The position numbers were made by a program, and so were the translations under genes. The notes beneath the pieces were generated by a model, which was not told the origin of the DNA, made no database searches, and saw only the letters and a list, made by a program, of their open reading frames with translations. Shown piece by piece: positions 13,487 to 44,613 of a DNA stretch of 64,000 nucleotides. Every line of letters begins with the position of its first letter. Within the stretch, counting starts at the first letter, position 1. The stretch is from positions 16,336 through 80,335 of IMG/VR virus record IMGVR_UViG_3300002143_000079. One strand, written 5' to 3'. This DNA is from a virus.

Positions 13487-16400
13487 TTAAACTGTAATAC
13501 CACCTTCCATGTTTTTGATGGATGCACCGACTGGTATTGTTATTATAGGTTCTCTATCTGATTCATTTGGTTCGTTTATCGTGGTAAACTTGGTTTGTCT
13601 CGATTTACCGGTATAAACCAGTCCAGTATCCAAACTACCGGTATCAAAATACAATTCTTTACGAAATGGAATATTCTTACGGCTGATATGACGGAAATTC
13701 TCCACATCTGTTAAAGTTGTATATGCAGAAGACGTTACAAACGAACTACCACTGATAACTAACGTGACCTTTTTAAAGTCTTTTACCACGTTATTTGAAT
13801 CAACCCCATCATCGGAATAACTCAATGTTCGTTTTTCGTTCAAAGTATAAGCTTTGTATGTCTGTCCGTCGAATTCCACATATCCAAAAGTATTTGGAAA
13901 TATACTGACCATATACTTATCGGGGGTATCTTGGATATTTTCGAACGCTGAGAATGTATTGGTCACAAACGTCGAGTTTACATTGGAAGTTGCAGCCACG
14001 GGTATTTCCGATGCGTTAAGAGATATTAATTCACCCTGATCAATATCCGCGATAATTTCTTTCAGGTCTATAATTGCATCCAAAGTTTGAATTTCACCTA
14101 TAAACACTGCTTTTTCTTCAATACGACTTCTCTCCAAAATAGTTGGTTCAACCAATATTCCTTTATAAACTCTATTTCTAGCAGGCAAGACATTTTTCAA
14201 TGTATCAAAAATGCTTTTATCTACGAAAATTTTGTATATCGTAAATAACTCATTGAATAAAATACGATTGATGTAGTTTTCCCCATAATAGTTTTTCCGT
14301 AAGGTTTCTAGTCCCAAATATTTACGTCCGAATTTTTCTCTTGGGTCGGAAATACTTGATACGATTTCATAATCCCCGAAGAAATTCAATATGTCTTTAT
14401 TTCGTTCGTGTATTGGTGATAGGAATATACCCAATTTATTAGCATCACTGTAGTAATTGTATTTAGATTTCGAGGTCCGTGTATTTGTTGGGGATAATGT
14501 ATTATCCAACGTGGTCAATGATGTATATTCTACTTTATCATTTTCAAACCGACTTGGTCCAACCTCTCCTGTGAAATATTCATTACTGATGTCAAATTCA
14601 CGGCTTTGGTGTGGGAATAGTGAATAGGACTGACTTACACAACTCGATGTATCGAAAGAATCGGAGATGTTGCTTCCCGTAAAATTATACATCAATGCGT
14701 AAGCCGAACTGTAATATCTATTGGCATTATCAACTCTAAATCCAGTAAGTTGTGAAGAACTATAACTTACATCAAATGGAATTCCAAAGTGGAACCGGAA
14801 TAAAATTTCTTCATAACTTGATGATGGTTGTCCTTGGTAGTAAGAGTTAAAATTCTTACACTTGATGTAGAAATTCTCATCCGATAACGCAACTGATTGG
14901 AATACAAACTTATCCAAACATCCGTAGAACTTGACCACTTCATAACCACCGATTTCAGTCAAGAAGAAATTCTCTTGGTCATTTTCAGCAATCAAATCCA
15001 AGTCATCAACTTCATCTTCCAATAAAACACTTTGATTTGCCGTAGGAATGTTACCCAATTCCGAAATCAAGTTTAAATTAGTGTCTACATTTCCGAAATA
15101 AGTTAATCCACCAACATTGTCAAATGCGGTATTCAAGGATCCACTAAGATAGAAACTAAACTTTTTATCAATTGGTTCCAGACAATATTCGTTTCTATGA
15201 ACACATATGTCGTATCGAGTTGGAACCAAATTGTCATCAGATGCAGTTTCAAAATTTGAATCAATTGGATTCTTTCTAAGTAAAAGACTCATCACTTCAC
15301 CATTGAACATGTAGAAAGGTTCCGTCACCGCCGCAAATGATTCATCACCACTTTTTATAACGAAGTATAAACTACCCAACGTATCGCTTATTTTTATGAA
15401 TCCAAACGAATAAATTTGGTCACCACCGGAGAATGAACTATGGATAGGAACAATGACCTGAGAGGTTGGATATTTTGTGGTATCAATATACAATTTGAAG
15501 TCAACCGATTTAAATGGTTCTAAATTTACAAACTCCACCCGTTCTTCCTCGGAACCAATGAATTCCAATAAATATTCCTTTTCTTCAATGGTATATGATG
15601 AACTAATTTCATTTTGCGTATATCCCCCACCAAATTCTTTCACCAGAATAAGATTGTTTGGGATACCATATATCGCAAATATCTGTCTCAGACACTCTTC
15701 GGTTCCTTTACTTTTATATATTGATGGTAAATTAGTTAATAATCTCTTCCATATAGTTTTCGTTTTATCATCAACGGAAATTGAGTTGTTATACTTATTG
15801 GATTCTGAACTATTGAGGTATAATTCATCCACTTCGGAATATTCCAATGTTCCACTTAGTCCCGGTGGAACTTTAAAGCCAAATCCATTCAAAATATTCG
15901 TGATTAACTTTCCAGTCAATCCCGTTGAAGTATCATCGCCGATATTTTTGTAAATACCGATATTGGAAATGTAAAGATAGATGTTATCAAAGTGATGACC
16001 AACCATACTCAAGAACTTGAGATACTCATCGTTATCAGTGTCATTATATACATACTCCGGGGTGTTGTTTATAAGACTATCACGATTGTTGATGTCATAC
16101 TCAGCACTATCGGTATCCAATGTGGCAACATAACTAGACGCACTAGAATCCGTTGTCGATTCAACAAATGTCTCAGATGAAGTATCGTAAATGAAATATC
16201 CAGTCTTGTAGAGATATGATTCATAACCATCAAAACTTGCAAATATCGAATCAATTTCTTTATTGTTTAACTCAATTTTGTTATACACCCCAATTTTATC
16301 ATTGGTTGCTGAATTAGTTGGATCAAAGGATTCCAATTCATCATTTTCTTCTTCTAAAACCGTTATTCTTGATATTTTATTTTTAAATATTTTGACTCGT

Positions 16401-31720: not shown

Positions 31721-32104
31721 TGGTGGAGATGATGGAAGTTGAATCCATGTCTTCAATCGTTATACCGTCAAAGCCTACATGTTTAGGATGTTTAAATTTT
31801 CGAGATTGTGTTCTGAACATACCAAACCACACAACCCTTATACTCAAGTTTTCTCGTTTGGTAACCTAAGTCGAATTACCAAACACTCACGAAAAATTCG
31901 TTGAATAGACTATCGTGTGTCATCCATTCAACGGCACAACCTTTTATTAGGCTGCGACAGCAACTTCGTCCATTTCTGGAGTGAAGTCATAGGCGATTAC
32001 GTTTTTTGCGTTTAATCTTTTTGATAGAAATTTTTAAGAGGCCAACTATCATCCTCTACATGCCTCGTACTTTATCTCAACTGAATCGAAACCAGTACAT
32101 CCCC
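31721..32104 (-). ncRNA. ssrA: tmRNA; tag peptide (A)AKNVIAYDFTPEMDEVAVAA encoded at 32009-31947
   Basis: 5' GGGGATG pairs with 3' CATCTCC-ACCA (G3-U alanine determinant); T-arm GGATTCAACTTCC; resume codon GCA after TTAAAC; tag ends AA then TAA TAA; TTGACA/TATAGT promoter upstream. Confidence 0.95.
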
Positions 32105-37359: not shown

Positions 37360-37695
37360 TTATACATCTTCTGCACAACCATGTGAACCACAACAAGGAC
37401 GAGGATTGCTATGGGGATTCATTTCTTCATCAAACGCACAGGTTTTACTGGTATAAACGTGACAACAATGACATTTGTCAGTTCCATCATCAGAATCAAC
37501 GGTTTCTTTCACAATCGACTCAACCTCATAAACCTCATTGGCTGAAACGATGATAACCACTCCAGCATCAAACTCCTTACATGGTTCGGTCAAGATAACG
37601 TGATAGGAATGAGAGTGAACCTCTGTAACTATACCGATTCCTTCTACACGACCATCCAACCGAAACATTACGATGTCATTGAAATTTGCTTTCAT
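37360..37695 (-). CDS. Two-domain protein with Cys/His-rich C-terminus (paralog 1)
   Basis: Nearly identical to 37923..38258; ends CCGSHGCAEDV. Confidence 0.8.
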   Translation of the reverse strand: MKANFNDIVMFRLDGRVEGIGIVTEVHSHSYHVILTEPCKEFDAGVVIIVSANEVYEVESIVKETVDSDDGTDKCHCCHVYTSKTCAFDEEMNPHSNPRPCCGSHGCAEDV

Positions 37696-37922: not shown

Positions 37923-38258
37923 TTACACGTCCTCCGCACAACCATGAGAGCCACAACAAGGACGTGGATTACTGTAGGGATTCATTTCCACATCAAACGA
38001 ACACACGTCGTCCGTGTGAACGGAACAACAGTGACACTTGTTCGTATCGTCGTCTGACGAACCTGTTTCTTCTACAACCGCAGAGACTTCATAAATCTCG
38101 TTAGCTGAAACAATGATGATCACACCTGCGTCAAACTCCTTACATGGTTCAGTCAAGAGAACGTGATAGGAGTGTGAATGGACTTCCGTCACTATACCAA
38201 TTCCTTCCACACTCCCATCCAACCGAAACATTACCACATCATTAAAGTTTGCTTTCAT
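37923..38258 (-). CDS. Two-domain protein with Cys/His-rich C-terminus (paralog 2)
   Basis: Nearly identical to 37360..37695. Confidence 0.8.
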   Translation of the reverse strand: MKANFNDVVMFRLDGSVEGIGIVTEVHSHSYHVLLTEPCKEFDAGVIIIVSANEIYEVSAVVEETGSSDDDTNKCHCCSVHTDDVCSFDVEMNPYSNPRPCCGSHGCAEDV

Positions 38259-39684: not shown

Positions 39685-39888
39685 TTATTCGTCACAATAG
39701 TCATCCGCCTCGTTTGCGTTGTAATCGGCCAAGTCATCCATTCCCGAACCATCACCCGACCATCCACCACCATCATACGGTTCTTCGTCAATCTCCGTTC
39801 GTTCTTCGTAAGCCGATTCCAAGTGACTATCTTCAAAACCAAAGTCAGATTCTTCGGATTCGGTGGTAAGTTCAATTTCGTCGTTCAT
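39685..39888 (-). CDS. Highly acidic small protein
   Basis: 67 aa, very D/E-rich; own promoter. Confidence 0.7.
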   Translation of the reverse strand: MNDEIELTTESEESDFGFEDSHLESAYEERTEIDEEPYDGGGWSGDGSGMDDLADYNANEADDYCDE

Positions 39889-39930
39889 ATTGAAAATAGA
39901 TTACCAAACATTTATAAAAAGTCAATACCA

Positions 39931-40047
39931 AGATTTGCTAGGGTTTTCTCCCTATCATTTCATTACCACTCGTCTTGGATTTCAACGAGTAGTCCCTGCT
40001 CACGTTCGGCGTTACTCCCTCACTAACAGGGTGATGGGAGTTTCCGT
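39931..40047 (-). ncRNA. Conserved structured RNA element, copy 1 (unknown family)
   Basis: Homologous to 44184-44300 with compensatory changes in three stems. Confidence 0.72.
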
Positions 40048-40083
40048 TCAGTTAGGACCGTCACGAGCGTTTCTTAGTTTCAT
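40048..40083 (-). CDS. 11-aa peptide MKLRNARDGPN
   Basis: Leaderless ATG 6 nt after -10 box; RDGPN-stop shared with 44301..44417. Confidence 0.6.
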   Translation of the reverse strand: MKLRNARDGPN

Positions 40084-40120
40084 ATAATTAATTTACCAGT
40101 TATTATACAATTGTCAACAA

Positions 40121-40543
40121 TTAAGAAACCCTCTGAATACTTTTAACCGTCAGAGTTTTGTAGTTGATACCAGAAAGAATATCACCCAAATTTTGCAGCG
40201 GAATATCGCCGTCTTCACACTCCACGGAAATGGTGTATCTCACCTTGACGTTTTCTTTAACCATCGCATCAAGTTCTTTCTCGGTGAGAATTTTCCAGTC
40301 ACCGGTCTTGGTGAACTTGCCAATTGTATGCAAGTCATGACCTGCAAATTGATTGATATGCACTGAACCATCCTTGTCCACTCGATGCCAATCAAAACCG
40401 CCGAGCTTGGGTGCGGCCAAAAGTGCGAGAAAGCCAGCACTATCGAAACCAACGTGTTTTCCAGTTTCATTAAACGAGTTTCGGTAACTGTTGGTGTTGA
40501 CAACGATGATTGTTCCCTCGGTGATATATTGTTTGTGATTCAT
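40121..40543 (-). CDS. Hypothetical early protein
   Basis: Own promoter, leaderless. Confidence 0.65.
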   Translation of the reverse strand: MNHKQYITEGTIIVVNTNSYRNSFNETGKHVGFDSAGFLALLAAPKLGGFDWHRVDKDGSVHINQFAGHDLHTIGKFTKTGDWKILTEKELDAMVKENVKVRYTISVECEDGDIPLQNLGDILSGINYKTLTVKSIQRVS

Positions 40544-40762
40544 ATTTGAGATAATATAGAAGTTTTTTAGAAAGTCAACAGTTTACAGAGCCAACATTGT
40601 CCACCAACTCAATTTTCCGATTCAATCGTTCATCTGGTGGAAGTTGCCAGAAGGGTAAACTCCAATCCTCACGGAGTTTGAAAATGGCCTCGTTCAACGT
40701 GTCAAATTTCTCTTTGTTTGTCATGTGAGTGATATTATGTTAATTTTATAAAATGTCAACCA

Positions 40763-41293
40763 CTATTGGTAGAGATAGTTTGTTTTTTTCGGTGGATTAC
40801 CAATCACCGATTTGCATGTCCGACAGGTATAAATTACACCTTTTTCAATTTTGTTCTTGATTTTCGCCGTGACTTTGATGTGTCCAACACCACACCTACA
40901 ATCCAACGCAAATTTCTTGAAAATCCGTTTCTTAACCGATGTAGTGTCGTAGGAATGACAACGGCCAATATCCGCAACTTCCAGATTACGCATCACACTC
41001 CGCCATTCAGGACCATGACCTTGTTTTGCGAAAGGATACACCTGAAAACAAACGAGGTGTGCGACTTCGTGAGGAACCGTCCGGTTAAGAAAAGTTTCAA
41101 TGTTCTGTGAATAAAGTGTGGGAGAGAAAGCCACTTTGTTACCGTAACGAAACGCCTTTCCCGCGATGTTTCCCATATCACCAAACTCTATCGTGGGAAT
41201 ATCAAATACACGATTATATCGTTTTTGAGCCAGTAACAGGGTTTCGACTATTTTGTTTTCCAAACGAGTGATAAGGTCTTTGGTCAAGTTCAT
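40763..41293 (-). CDS. SprT-like zinc metalloprotease
   Basis: AGKA, TVPHEVAHL (HExxH), GHGPEWRSVM, CRCG, CRTC. Confidence 0.88.
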   Translation of the reverse strand: MNLTKDLITRLENKIVETLLLAQKRYNRVFDIPTIEFGDMGNIAGKAFRYGNKVAFSPTLYSQNIETFLNRTVPHEVAHLVCFQVYPFAKQGHGPEWRSVMRNLEVADIGRCHSYDTTSVKKRIFKKFALDCRCGVGHIKVTAKIKNKIEKGVIYTCRTCKSVIGNPPKKTNYLYQ

Positions 41294-41346
41294 GACCAAA
41301 GACTATACCAGTTTTATAAAATGTCAACGATCTCGTTTATTTATTT

Positions 41347-41757
41347 TTAGTTTCCACCCATGTATTGACCGAACTCATACACACTCATGGTTTCTGCTTG
41401 TTGGACCTTGCCTGGCTCAAGCCAGACAGTAATACAAAGCATGGCTCCATCTGTCTTGCCTGCCCAGATAAACGGATTGGGCACGTTTTCGAGATTCTTG
41501 CCTTGAAATTTGCTCTTCACAAAACGTCCACCACCACCCCATTGCAAAAAACCGGGTAGGTCAACACCGTGCATAATCACGTCTTGCAATGTTCCTTCAA
41601 ACGTGCCCAATCGTGGTTCGTAGTGATGACCACCCATATCACAGTTTGGATCCTCACCCAAAACTTCCCATACATCGTATTCATTCAGACCATGATTTTC
41701 CAAGAGAGATTTGCCGGAGTAGGTGTTTTCGAGATACCTTTTATAGTTTGGAGTCAT
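41347..41757 (-). CDS. Hypothetical protein
   Basis: 136 aa; own promoter. Confidence 0.65.
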   Translation of the reverse strand: MTPNYKRYLENTYSGKSLLENHGLNEYDVWEVLGEDPNCDMGGHHYEPRLGTFEGTLQDVIMHGVDLPGFLQWGGGGRFVKSKFQGKNLENVPNPFIWAGKTDGAMLCITVWLEPGKVQQAETMSVYEFGQYMGGN

Positions 41758-41890
41758 AAGTTATTGACTAGATATTATACCAATATCATTTGTAGTCAAT
41801 CAGAAACAGCAAACCTTTGCTATATTTTCTGATTTGGTTATCGGATGGATTGTCGGCCAGATTGCTGACTATCTTGACACCGTTGAATTG

Positions 41891-42070
41891 TCAAGGAATA
41901 TACCAAACGGGAGCACCAATATTTGTATCATATTCCCCAACCACGGCTGATGTAGCATGACCTTGTTCTTTCAACTTCGCAACCCACTTCTCAACACGTT
42001 CTTTGGTAACGTGTTTGTCAAAGTAAATCAGTGCAGCGACTTCGGTGATGTTGATGGATGATTTAGGCAT
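41891..42070 (-). CDS. 59-aa hypothetical protein downstream of the hammerhead
   Basis: MPKSSINITEVAALIYFDK...APVWYIP; below ORF-track cutoff. Confidence 0.6.
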   Translation of the reverse strand: MPKSSINITEVAALIYFDKHVTKERVEKWVAKLKEQGHATSAVVGEYDTNIGAPVWYIP

Positions 42071-42123
42071 AATTTTGTTTTGTGCTGTGTTGAGGTTCTG
42101 CGAACTGCGGCTTTGGTGCCACT

Positions 42124-42178
42124 CGACTCGTCAGTGCTGGAGAAACCAGCAGACGCGGGAGAATCCCGCGTTTCGTCG
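42124..42178 (-). ncRNA. Type II hammerhead ribozyme
   Basis: CGAC GAAA CGCGGGA-uuc-UCCCGCG UC UGCUGG-uuucu-CCAGCA CUGACGA GUCG: full core, three perfect stems; predicted cleavage between 42152 and 42151. Confidence 0.93.
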
Positions 42179-42181
42179 TTC

Positions 42182-42445
42182 CTATTCTTCTACAATCGCA
42201 ATGACGGACTTGAGCGCGTAGGTCAGACCACCTTCACTGCTCTCGATGCTGATTACATTTTTCCGTTGACCGTCAATCGTGATGACGAAGTTGATGGTGT
42301 CCGTGGTGGTAACCGACCATGTGATTGAACCACCGCAAATAAAGCCGGAGTAGCTTCCGTTCTTGGACTTCTTAACTTCGCTGATGTAGTTCGACAGCGA
42401 TTGCTTAATACGTGCGTTGACTTCGGTATTTGGTTCTTTGTTCAT
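42182..42445 (-). CDS. Hypothetical early protein
   Basis: Own promoter; stop 3 nt before hammerhead. Confidence 0.65.
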   Translation of the reverse strand: MNKEPNTEVNARIKQSLSNYISEVKKSKNGSYSGFICGGSITWSVTTTDTINFVITIDGQRKNVISIESSEGGLTYALKSVIAIVEE

Positions 42446-42478
42446 TGTGAAAAAAGACTACACCAAAACGATAAAATG

Positions 42479-42706
42479 TCAACTTACTTTCTCTAGTTTT
42501 TTCAAACTATTTTCCGCCTGTTGCATGGCCCAATCCAACTTCTCCCTTGGCACTTCATTTATATCCATAGCCACGGTATCTTCCACACTCCGTTTACCAT
42601 TTTTACGACCATACATCATACGAAAGACAAACTGCCAACCCTCTGGCATCTTAACCAGATTCGTTCTAAGATACTCTCGTGCAGTTTCTTCCAAGATATG
42701 ATTCAT
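42479..42706 (-). CDS. Hypothetical early protein
   Basis: Own promoter, leaderless. Confidence 0.65.
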   Translation of the reverse strand: MNHILEETAREYLRTNLVKMPEGWQFVFRMMYGRKNGKRSVEDTVAMDINEVPREKLDWAMQQAENSLKKLEKVS

Positions 42707-42708
42707 AA

Positions 42709-43389
42709 AACAAGATTATCAGAAAACATCAAACAGTCAATAATATTACCGGTGACCGTTATGTTGGTCAGACCAATCAACGAGTTGAAAAGAGATGGCA
42801 AGTTCATAAACGATGTAAACGAAATGCTCCCTTATACAATGCATTCCGAAAATATGGCCTTGACAATTTTACATTCTCTATACTAGAAACAACGGATAAC
42901 GATTTGTTACTTGATGAGTTGGAAATCAAACATATAGCCAATCAACGTTCTTTTAGAGATTGGAATGAAGGTGGTTACAATCTCACAACCGGAGGATATG
43001 CCAATCGTGTAGTCAGTGCTGTTACACGACAAAAATTAAGAGAATCAACACGGCAATCATATCAAAATAATTCCAATAGAGGATTTCGTGTGGGAAATAT
43101 TCCTTGGAACAAAGGATTGACTGGTTTAACTAAAGCCACACAAGTTGCGTGGAATAAGGGATTAAAAAATTGTCAAACCGCTTGGAATAAAGGTAAAACC
43201 TCGACTCAACAATATAACTTCTCAAATATCAAAACTCAAGAAGAATTTTGTGGCACTAAGAATGAATTTGAATTGAAATTCAACGTGTCTAAATCAACTG
43301 TCAAACGAATATGTCAATCCAAACATTCTACTTGGATAGGAAAAAAAGTCCAGTGTCTTGACCCCGTTACACTGGAAAACGGACAATGA
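42709..43389 (+). pseudogene. 5'-truncated GIY-YIG/NUMOD3-like homing endonuclease
   Basis: Frame extends upstream of track start: QTVNNITGDRYVGQT..RW..H...YGLDNF; GYNLTTGG; WNKG repeats; no GIY or ATG after TAA at 42706-42708. Confidence 0.72.
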
Positions 43390-43602
43390 TTAAGCACTCA
43401 GGGAGAGTGGTATAGGTCCAAATTGTATTTTGTTCGGTTACAAAAGGTGTTATAAAGCACCAAAAAACCACAACATTTAAGGGATAGTTGCCACCTGTCA
43501 AGTTTTTATTTAATGGACACTTCACTAACCCTGTTCTCCGCCGAGAAAAATCGTGAGGGTTTCAGGTTAACCCACAACCTTTAGTACGACTACCAAGAGA
43601 AA

Positions 43603-43812
43603 TTACATTGATTGATACGTTTCCGACTGTTGCCACATAGCATACCACTCTTCATGAGCTTCTGTCAACTCCGAAAGAGGAACGCCCTTGTGATAAATCT
43701 TCCCGTTGAAGATACCACCGATGTTTGCGGTCTTCTTGAACAAGGTAGTCACCCGTTGGTAACCATCCTTGTATTTGACCACTGAACCTTTGACGATTGG
43801 GTTGTTATTCAT
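43603..43812 (-). CDS. Hypothetical early protein
   Basis: Own promoter. Confidence 0.65.
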   Translation of the reverse strand: MNNNPIVKGSVVKYKDGYQRVTTLFKKTANIGGIFNGKIYHKGVPLSELTEAHEEWYAMWQQSETYQSM

Positions 43813-43853
43813 TGTGGTAAGAGATTACTTGATTATTATCGAAACGTCAAGCC

Positions 43854-44135
43854 TTAGTTGGCTTCATCTTCACTGTCTTCATTCTCATCTTCCACCACCG
43901 AATCTTGAGCCAATTCCACAACTGCGTCCAAGGGAGTGATTGCGGAAAAGGTTGTCACCCACTCACAATCACGTTCAAGTCCCGGTTCCAAGTGAGCCAA
44001 CGTCTTATACCGAAACATTTCATATTCCCGTGGCGTCATAGCACCACGGCAGATGTCCTTGAATTCGTTGAGTATCTCCATCATTTCATTGTGGAGTTCA
44101 TTCAAACGGTTTGCGTCGTCCATGTTGATATTCAT
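43854..44135 (-). CDS. Acidic hypothetical early protein
   Basis: Own promoter; acidic tail. Confidence 0.65.
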   Translation of the reverse strand: MNINMDDANRLNELHNEMMEILNEFKDICRGAMTPREYEMFRYKTLAHLEPGLERDCEWVTTFSAITPLDAVVELAQDSVVEDENEDSEDEAN

Positions 44136-44183
44136 TGTGAAAATAGACTACCAAAAGTTGATAAAAAGTCAAGGGATTTGCCG

Positions 44184-44300
44184 AGATTTGCTGGGGTTTT
44201 CTCCCCATCATTTCATTACCACCCACCTCGGACTTCGGTGAATGGCCTCATCCTGTTCGGCCGTGCCCCCATTCCCTAGTAGAGTGGGCGGGGCTTCCGT
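44184..44300 (-). ncRNA. Conserved structured RNA element, copy 2 (unknown family)
   Basis: Homologous to 39931-40047 with compensatory changes. Confidence 0.72.
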
Positions 44301-44417
44301 TTAGTTCGGCCCGTCTCGTTCGGCTTCATAAACCCGGTTAGGGTAAAGAGTTACACCAAACTTTGCCGTGATGATTCGTTTCACACGAACGTTGATGTAC
44401 TTAGGTAGGTCTTTCAT
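44301..44417 (-). CDS. 38-aa peptide ending ERDGPN
   Basis: MKDLPKYINVRVKRIITAKFGVTLYPNRVYEAERDGPN; ATG 8 nt after -10 box. Confidence 0.65.
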   Translation of the reverse strand: MKDLPKYINVRVKRIITAKFGVTLYPNRVYEAERDGPN

Positions 44418-44460
44418 ATGGGAACATGTTATCAAAGATATTCAGGTTGTCAACAGGTTT

Positions 44461-44613
44461 TTATACATCTTCTGCACAACCATGATGTCCACAGCAGGGA
44501 CGAGGCTCACTATGTGGATTCATGTCCTTGTCAAAAGAACACTCACCATCGGTGCAAACGCCACAGATATGACAGCCCGGTTCATCGTCATCGGTGAATG
44601 ATTTCTCAGGCAT
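44461..44613 (-). CDS. Stand-alone 50-aa Cys/His-rich domain
   Basis: CHICGV...CSFDKDMNPHSEPRPCCGHHGCAEDV matches the C-termini of the 37360 and 37923 paralogs. Confidence 0.8.
   Translation of the reverse strand: MPEKSFTDDDEPGCHICGVCTDGECSFDKDMNPHSEPRPCCGHHGCAEDV

Follow-up and report, generated by a model that had tools for sequence, protein, structure and literature searches.

Two copies of a structured RNA joined to a short RDGPN-stop reading frame in the early region of an uncultured phage

Two short transcription units on the minus strand of an uncultured phage genome each begin with a small reading frame ending in the residues RDGPN and a stop codon, and each continue directly into a folded RNA, which raises the question whether the working product is the peptide, the RNA, or an RNA whose folding depends on translation of the frame. 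The units lie in a stretch of 64,000 nucleotides (positions 16,336 to 80,335; hereafter the window) of the IMG/VR virus record IMGVR_UViG_3300002143_000079, which is 80,335 bases long, with an estimated completeness of 23%. This record encodes a T4-type baseplate wedge protein, RNA ligase 1, a transfer-messenger RNA (tmRNA), homing endonucleases and small early genes arranged in a long array. The closest isolates, judged from the baseplate wedge protein at 36-38% identity, are Microcystis phage Mel-JY01, the uncultured 484-kb phage LR756508 and Flavobacterium phage immuto, and near-identical DNA is present in marine and aquatic metagenomes of several studies. The structured RNA is real and apparently new, on an evidence base of two sequences, and we tentatively propose that its folding is gated by a terminating ribosome.

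Layout and fold of the two units

An earlier note on this DNA, made from the letters alone, had described two minus-strand units, each behind its own promoter and each opening with a leaderless frame whose RDGPN-stop end differs between the copies only silently, and both the sequence and the layout bear this description out. Unit A occupies 44417-44180 and unit B 40083-39927 (all unit coordinates are on the minus strand); these extents include corrected 3' ends, since the module reaches further than the ends given before, 44184 and 39931. The promoter of unit A, TTGACA-16-TAACAT (44426..44453), follows the consensus of the 43 promoter cassettes described below, and its ATG lies 8 nt past the -10 box. 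That of unit B is TTGACA-16-TAAATT (40090..40117), with the ATG 6 nt past the -10 box, and in both units the AUG stands at, or no more than 2 bases from, the predicted transcript start. The frame of unit A (44301..44417) has 38 codons and TAA, with the RDGPN codons at 44318-44304, and its product is protein P0003, while that of unit B (40048..40083) has 11 codons and TGA, with RDGPN at 40065-40051. The A/B differences in this end are CGA/CGT, GGG/GGT, CCG/CCT and TAA/TGA. Only the 15 bases of RDGPN and the sequence downstream are common to the two units; upstream, unit B has a different promoter and six unrelated codons. At the other end, the -35 box of the next cassette directly follows the module (44168..44172 in A, 39925-39921 in B), and the likeness continues through that promoter up to the following ATGAA, where it ends. 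There are just two copies in the 80-kb record, both by BLAST and by a covariance model run with filters off, which scored them at 164 and 163 bits and the next match at 13.5.

The shape predicted for the module (44180..44324 in A, 39927..40078 in B) is a four-helix junction formed by a closing helix and three hairpins, P1, P2 and P3. In unit A, the closing helix pairs GCCGA (44324-44320) with UCGGC (44184-44180), P1 pairs GCCCC (44294-44290) with GGGGC (44269-44265) on a base helix of CGG (44299-44297) and CCG (44260-44258), and a linker (44254-44247) leads to P2 (44246-44237/44227-44218, loop GAAGUCCGA). The junction AAUGAAAUGA (44217-44208) then precedes P3 (44207-44203/44196-44192, loop AGAAAA), which is followed by GCAAAUCU (44191-44184). 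In unit B, ACUAAGA (40078-40072) pairs with UCUUGGU (39933-39927) to close the module, the P1 base is again CGG (40046-40044) with CCG (40009-40007), and P1 is ACUCC (40041-40037) with GGAGU (40018-40014). The linker (40003-39994), P2 (39993-39984/39974-39965, loop GAAAUCCAA), the junction AAUGAAAUGA (39964-39955), P3 (39954-39950/39943-39939) and GCAAAUCU (39938-39931) follow in the same order.

All three stems for which compensatory changes had been claimed were confirmed; of the 27 pairs that RNAalifold predicts for both copies, 5 are compensatory. A 28-pair structure, tested on an alignment extended slightly, comprises 3 pairs in the P1 base helix, 5 in P1, 10 in P2, 5 in P3 and 5 in a pseudoknot that joins the 3' tail to the P2 loop. 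It forms completely in both copies, 28/28; both partners have changed in 7 pairs and one partner in 5, and control structures in which the partner was slid by 1-3 columns had 25-46% of cells paired. In P2, 7/10 pairs differ and pairing is retained. P2 also contains three G-U pairs in A and two in B, the equivalents of which on the plus strand would be A-C mismatches, and so the structure belongs to the minus-strand RNA. A plus-strand terminator consisting of P3 and UCAUUUCAUU, flagged in both copies, was rejected because of these G-U pairs and the absence of plus-strand genes. Folding energy was less uniform: compared with shuffled sequences, unit B gave z = -3.3, and the 137-nt core of unit A, with z = -0.95, did not stand out.

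Conservation is highest where the model leaves bases unpaired. The stretch from GGUAAUGAAAUGAU to GCAAAUCU is identical at 39/41 nt between the copies, and the near-invariant parts are AAUGAAAUGAU, the P3 loop AGAAAA and GCAAAUCU, while the stems vary. Spacing is less strict than it had seemed, as the distance from the stop codon to the invariant AUGAAAUGA and its hairpin, described before as exactly 84 nt, does have that value in both copies but is 87 in a metagenome variant of unit A with a net gain of 3 nt in the linker (at 44249-44253). Accordingly, the linker between the second CCGAAC of the module and P2 measures 8, 10 or 11 nt among A, B and the variant. The metagenome DNA contigs, ~99% identical, yielded this +3-nt linker variant and no covariation.

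The closing helix is the less certain part of the fold. In both minimum-energy structures, the tail ahead of the next -35 box pairs with a 5' segment and thereby closes the whole module, and the 5' strand is GCCGA, 1 nt ahead of the R codon, in A, and ACUAAGA, nucleotides 6-12 of the transcript, in B. The 3' tail has alternative partners, either the P2 loop, where two positions covary, or an internal GCCGA. A helix between the RDGPN codons and CCGAAC-CGUGAGC was rejected, being strong in B and absent in A.

The statement that the module belongs to no recognised family also stood after Rfam 15 and homolog searches came back empty. Across the whole window, only the tmRNA reached the Rfam 15 gathering score, and in E-value mode, with 4.8 kb and with each unit alone, the best matches were 10-14 bits with E > 1, where thresholds are 35-75 bits. 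None of the self-cleaving classes (hammerhead, twister, twister-sister, pistol, hatchet, HDV-like and hairpin) matched inside the units at E up to 10, and the one hammerhead-like match is the separate element at 42121-42176. Megablast and blastn against GenBank phage records returned nothing or chance matches of 27-31 nt. Four DNA patterns were run against IMG/VR, where two had no match and the other two had 4 and 1, all in apparent coding sequence; the highest covariance-model score among these was 17 bits, which is owed to the seeded motif. One pattern gave 9 matches in metagenome contigs, none fitting the covariance model, and one gave 12 in GTDB genomes with no true homolog among them, three flavobacterial matches sharing an apparent protein-coding stretch and no hairpin. 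The covariance model found no match in Mel-JY01, LR756508 or Flavobacterium phage immuto. Searches with the flanking early proteins revealed no related loci, and the 140-residue neighbour had no relative among 5.8 billion proteins.

Origin of the RDGPN end and probable selection on it

The earlier note had proposed a ribosome-stalling or recoding peptide linked to the RNA, possibly trapping host ribosomes or release factors, a mechanistic reading that is supported only in part. The physical coupling, present twice, holds, but the motif has another origin. P0003, the 38-residue product of unit A, occurs on 10 contigs, and its 90%-identity cluster has one other member, P0004, a protein of 67 residues on an 82,872-nt contig that is 95% identical to P0003 over the first 38 residues. 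Where P0003 has ERDGPN, P0004 reads ERNGPN and continues for 29 further residues without a stop. From its single sequence, P0004 is predicted to fold into a complete small beta-barrel with strands to residue 60 (predicted local distance difference test score, pLDDT, 81), and SH3 domains or SH3-like proteins are its top structural matches by the Atlas model as well as in a Foldseek search, covering 55-65 of its 67 residues, with weak Foldseek E-values of 0.07 and above. Two distant homologs recovered in a full HMMER search, P0006 and P0007 (53 and 55 residues), span the junction in the alignment and have AE-x-[DN]-G in common. Since P0004 is intact through GPN, RDGPN is the native beta-turn of that protein and not a purpose-built arrest motif. 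The likeness to the RAGP of SecM and to the Pro-stop of TnaC that had been put forward is not one of homology, and the Pro stands here at position -2 and not at the stop.

The frame of unit A thus preserves only the front half of an SH3-like early gene, truncated just past the native beta-turn. It ends after residue 38, at the turn ahead of strands 40-45, 48-52 and 57-60 of the P0004 model, and a complete barrel of five to seven strands takes ~55-67 residues, leaving the frame a fragment and no working member of the family. No trace of the SH3 back half was found within the window, and a search with unit A read through its TAA (X at the stop) recovered its own cluster only. In the history that we propose, the RNA module joined an SH3-like early gene directly after codon 38 and took the place of its back half, and unit A would retain the dead front half, whereas unit B would retain just the last five codons, supplied with a new promoter and an in-frame AUG at the 5' terminus. 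Read-through of the stop was considered and rejected, as A is open for 30 codons past its TAA but B has five more in-frame stops; selenocysteine is excluded by the TAA of A.

Of the four differences between the copies in this end, three fall at third codon positions and the fourth swaps one stop for another. Four random substitutions in these 18 nt keep RDGPN-stop with a probability of 0.0015, and all four observed ones do. The amino-acid-level conservation of the peptide end that had been claimed is therefore supported (P = 0.0015), for two sequences only. Over the 45 nt from the R codon, eight differing codons in frame 0 keep the residue and three change it, and each of the other two frames has one and nine. 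Because all four differences preserve RDGPN-stop, selection probably kept the frame translated as far as the foot of the RNA core after the fusion, a view for which this comparison gives moderate evidence. In addition, an AUG in frame with RDGPN stands at the transcript start of both units, unlike in a neighbouring RNA candidate (~43470).

Possible ribosome-gated folding and competing explanations

In the reading that we tentatively prefer, a terminating ribosome gates the folding of each unit, an early phage RNA that would exert its effect through the conserved surfaces left unpaired. Each unit would be a separately promoted early transcript with a folded RNA of ~150 nt as its product. Ribosomes would load on the 5'-terminal AUG, translate the mini-frame and terminate at RDGPN-stop. 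The stop codon lies 1 base ahead of the P1 base helix and 6 bases ahead of P1, and a ribosome positioned there, with AAC in the P site, would overlie the junction together with the CGG and P1's 5' strand, and in B also the strand of the closing helix. When such a footprint was masked in folding predictions, the closing and long-range helices and P1 were lost and P2 and P3 remained, and since masking removes the closing helix and P1, translation and the closed fold are predicted to be mutually exclusive. The four-helix fold would then form only after the ribosome is released, and the ribosome would gate or time folding. The Pro at -2 may slow release; termination depends in part on which residue is penultimate in the nascent chain (PMC11890864 and work cited there), and peptides of 14 residues can arrest at stop codons (PMC11890864). 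The effector would be the folded RNA and not the peptide, and it would most likely bind a host or phage factor through the conserved single-stranded surfaces.

Several observations weigh against this proposal. No terminator, start site or other evident output comes under the control of the units, and a separate promoter serves the next gene. Neither unit has a predicted minus-strand terminator, P3 being followed by GCAAAUCU and no U tract, and the arrangement of a leader-peptide attenuator, with terminator, antiterminator and a promoterless next gene, is absent. The 15 bases of RDGPN (12/15 identical) show no more conservation than the whole module, and the third-position pattern amounts to three substitutions. 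The RDGPN bases also lie within the closing helix, so that a constraint at the RNA level is possible, with the codon periodicity then a product of chance. The closing helix is itself uncertain, as its 5' partners are non-aligned between A and B and the tail has three candidate partners. Finally, there are two copies from a single phage lineage with no independent homolog, and the covariation comes from one pairwise comparison.

Alternatively, the module may be a stand-alone early small RNA that binds a protein or a ligand, acts by base pairing or cleaves itself, with the mini-frames as inert relics of the gene it truncated, and we regard this explanation as nearly as likely as ribosome gating, though also less than even. 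The stop would only spare the core from being unfolded by stray ribosomes, and the RDGPN bases would be kept as a junction strand. RDGPN is demonstrably left over from an SH3-like gene, its codons lie inside the closing helix in both minimum-energy folds, and invariance is greatest in unpaired junctions and a loop (39/41 nt), as in ribozymes and aptamers; moreover, between the units there is a type II hammerhead whose core is intact, and the phage carries other promoter-driven RNA candidates. An RNA acting alone leaves unexplained the third-position-only changes and kept stop, which are unlikely by chance (0.0015), and the AUG that both units have at the transcript start, in the frame of RDGPN, and sequence derived from a coding region would be an odd origin for an essential junction. 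Earlier new classes of ribozyme were found beside hammerheads, and there is a small chance that the module represents a new class of functional early-region RNA fold in phages, either ribosome-gated or a self-cleaving or ligand-binding RNA beside the hammerhead.

A second CCGAAC (44255..44260 in A, 40009-40004 in B) repeats the pre-stop CCN-AAC 49 nt downstream in A and 47 nt in B, which recalls translational bypass as in T4 gene 60 or the mitochondrial byp elements, by which peptidyl-tRNA(Asn) would leave CCN-AAC-stop, skip P1 and land on the second CCG-AAC, with the P1 segment and its flanking repeats being a small mobile insert. Checked against the features listed by Manning and Atkins (bioRxiv 10.1101/2022.08.31.505936), the units have matched take-off and landing codons, a stop (TAA in A, TGA in B) directly past take-off, a hairpin in a gap close to the 50 nt of T4 and another, P2, after landing, a G-rich triplet (GGG or GAG) ending 8 nt before the landing AAC, and a conserved nascent-peptide end, in a phage with T4-like baseplate-wedge and RNA-ligase genes. 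Nevertheless, the hairpin excludes the codon of take-off, unpaired in the shared structure, and the frames past landing (12 codons in A, 21 in B) run in different frames relative to the homologous bases, are mutually unrelated and are unrelated to the 29-residue back half of P0004, and do not rebuild the SH3 protein. There is no conserved coding past landing, the units are not within a topoisomerase gene and have no adjacent mobA, unlike T4 gene 60, and with no Shine-Dalgarno motif evident before 19 long open reading frames (ORFs), a mini-Shine-Dalgarno element, expected 5-7 nt before the landing codon, may have no role. We therefore consider bypass very unlikely; the CCGAAC repeat could just as well serve in pairing (CGG with CCG) or be the scar of an insertion.

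A further candidate is a site-specific mobile cassette, in which the module entered the same codon of two SH3-like paralogs independently. If both paralogs were intact at the time, the silent RDGPN differences predate the module and are uninformative on its function. The same 15 nt do occur in three contexts (the relative's intact gene, unit A and unit B), the module contains the direct repeat ACGG(N)CCGAAC, homing endonuclease genes are nearby, and T4 bypass cassettes re-insert at one position (bioRxiv 10.1101/2022.08.31.505936). This history is improbable all the same, requiring two insertions and, in addition, that both back halves and the front half of B were lost, with the SH3 back half leaving no trace in the window. 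The explanation that we rate lowest makes the units cis-acting modifiers of transcription like lambda nut or HK022 put, by which RNA polymerase would read through downstream signals. Like put and nut, they are two diverged small structured RNAs, each right behind an early promoter, with compensatory changes, and the 5-bp stem of P3 carries a purine-rich loop, presumably comparable to lambda boxB. They share no motifs with put and nut, lack a boxA common to both copies, have a larger and different fold and a translated 5' end, and stand not at the head of a long operon but amid an array of 43 self-promoted cassettes. Terminator-like sites are not commoner than in shuffled sequence (12 found vs 13.2 expected).

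Among known systems, the arrest or leader peptides TnaC, PepNL and SpeFL, which work at a stop codon, have like the units a very short ORF, conserved C-terminal residues with the stop, and a downstream RNA coupled in cis. The units have no sequence relation to them, carry Pro at -2 and not -1, inherited their motif from a protein beta-turn, and are not followed by a regulated gene, Rho site or terminator. With the dual-function small RNAs SgrS/SgrT, RNAIII/hld and SR1/SR1P they share a single transcript that combines a small translated frame with a structured RNA acting as such, but the peptide bodies of the units (11 and 38 residues) are unrelated, one is a broken protein fragment, and only the last five residues are common.

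The early-gene array and what the units may mean

The units lie within a dense array of early genes. A scan of the minus strand from 36400 to 59200 in the window found 43 sites of the form TTGAC-N-TAnnnT with an ATG 4-14 nt later, and because of this spacing, nearly every small early gene is, as read from the sequence, leaderless or almost so. No Shine-Dalgarno motif was seen in the 30 bases upstream of any of the 19 long ORFs inspected across the window, a hint that the host may do without Shine-Dalgarno pairing.

The genes immediately downstream of the units (39685-39888 and 43854-44135, both minus strand) encode very acidic small proteins; a functional tie to them was dropped, since the two proteins share no sequence relation. 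Immediately upstream of unit A is a Cys/His-rich ORF of 50 residues (44461-44613, minus strand) that resembles the C-termini of two paralogs of 111 residues (37360-37695 and 37923-38258, both minus strand; …PRPCCG.HGCAEDV), and these shared ends account for short cross-matches of contigs. A polymorphism by insertion or replacement lies at the start of a 136-codon gene (41519-41792), where a 65-kb contig from sequencing run X1 (depth 132), ~99% identical elsewhere, has 1138 other bases in place of these 272; the phage is present at high depth in runs X1 and X3.

Other RNAs and mobile elements are found in the same region. The type II hammerhead between units A and B (42121-42176, minus strand) has its CUGACGA, GAAAC and GUC core intact and three stems, scores 27.6 bits (E = 0.016), under the Rfam threshold of 37, and sits right past the stop of an 87-codon gene and ahead of a 59-codon ORF for which the promoter scans gave no site. 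A free-standing homing endonuclease gene (42904-43389, plus strand; phrog_7168, E = 2e-6) lies on the opposite strand within the early array, ~0.8 kb downstream of unit A. Its 3' end is overlapped in antisense by a candidate small RNA (43320-43500, minus strand) of ~140 nt, with a promoter of TTGACA then TTAAAT and no ATG after it (~43470), which contains CCGAAC and ends in the stem CCAGUGU/ACACUGG and a run of seven U. The tmRNA (31721-32104, minus strand) is a one-piece phage form (Rfam RF00023, 136.5 bits) on which ARAGORN made no call; its tag frame, read from the alignment, is AKNVIAYDFTPEMDEVAVAA followed by two stops.

The practical limit on any interpretation is that two copies are known, from one lineage. 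If ribosome gating is true, a gene fragment has been recycled, and the last five codons of a destroyed gene were kept because the terminating ribosome controls the neighbouring RNA. This would be an unusual route to a device resembling a leader peptide, in a phage whose early genes are apparently all translated from 5'-terminal AUGs. If the RNA works alone, it is still an unclassified and well-supported fold beside a hammerhead ribozyme. It sits among early genes of the kind that usually serve host takeover and defence, and, if the proposal holds, uncultured marine phages, whose repertoire of RNAs is almost unknown, would gain a structured RNA family.

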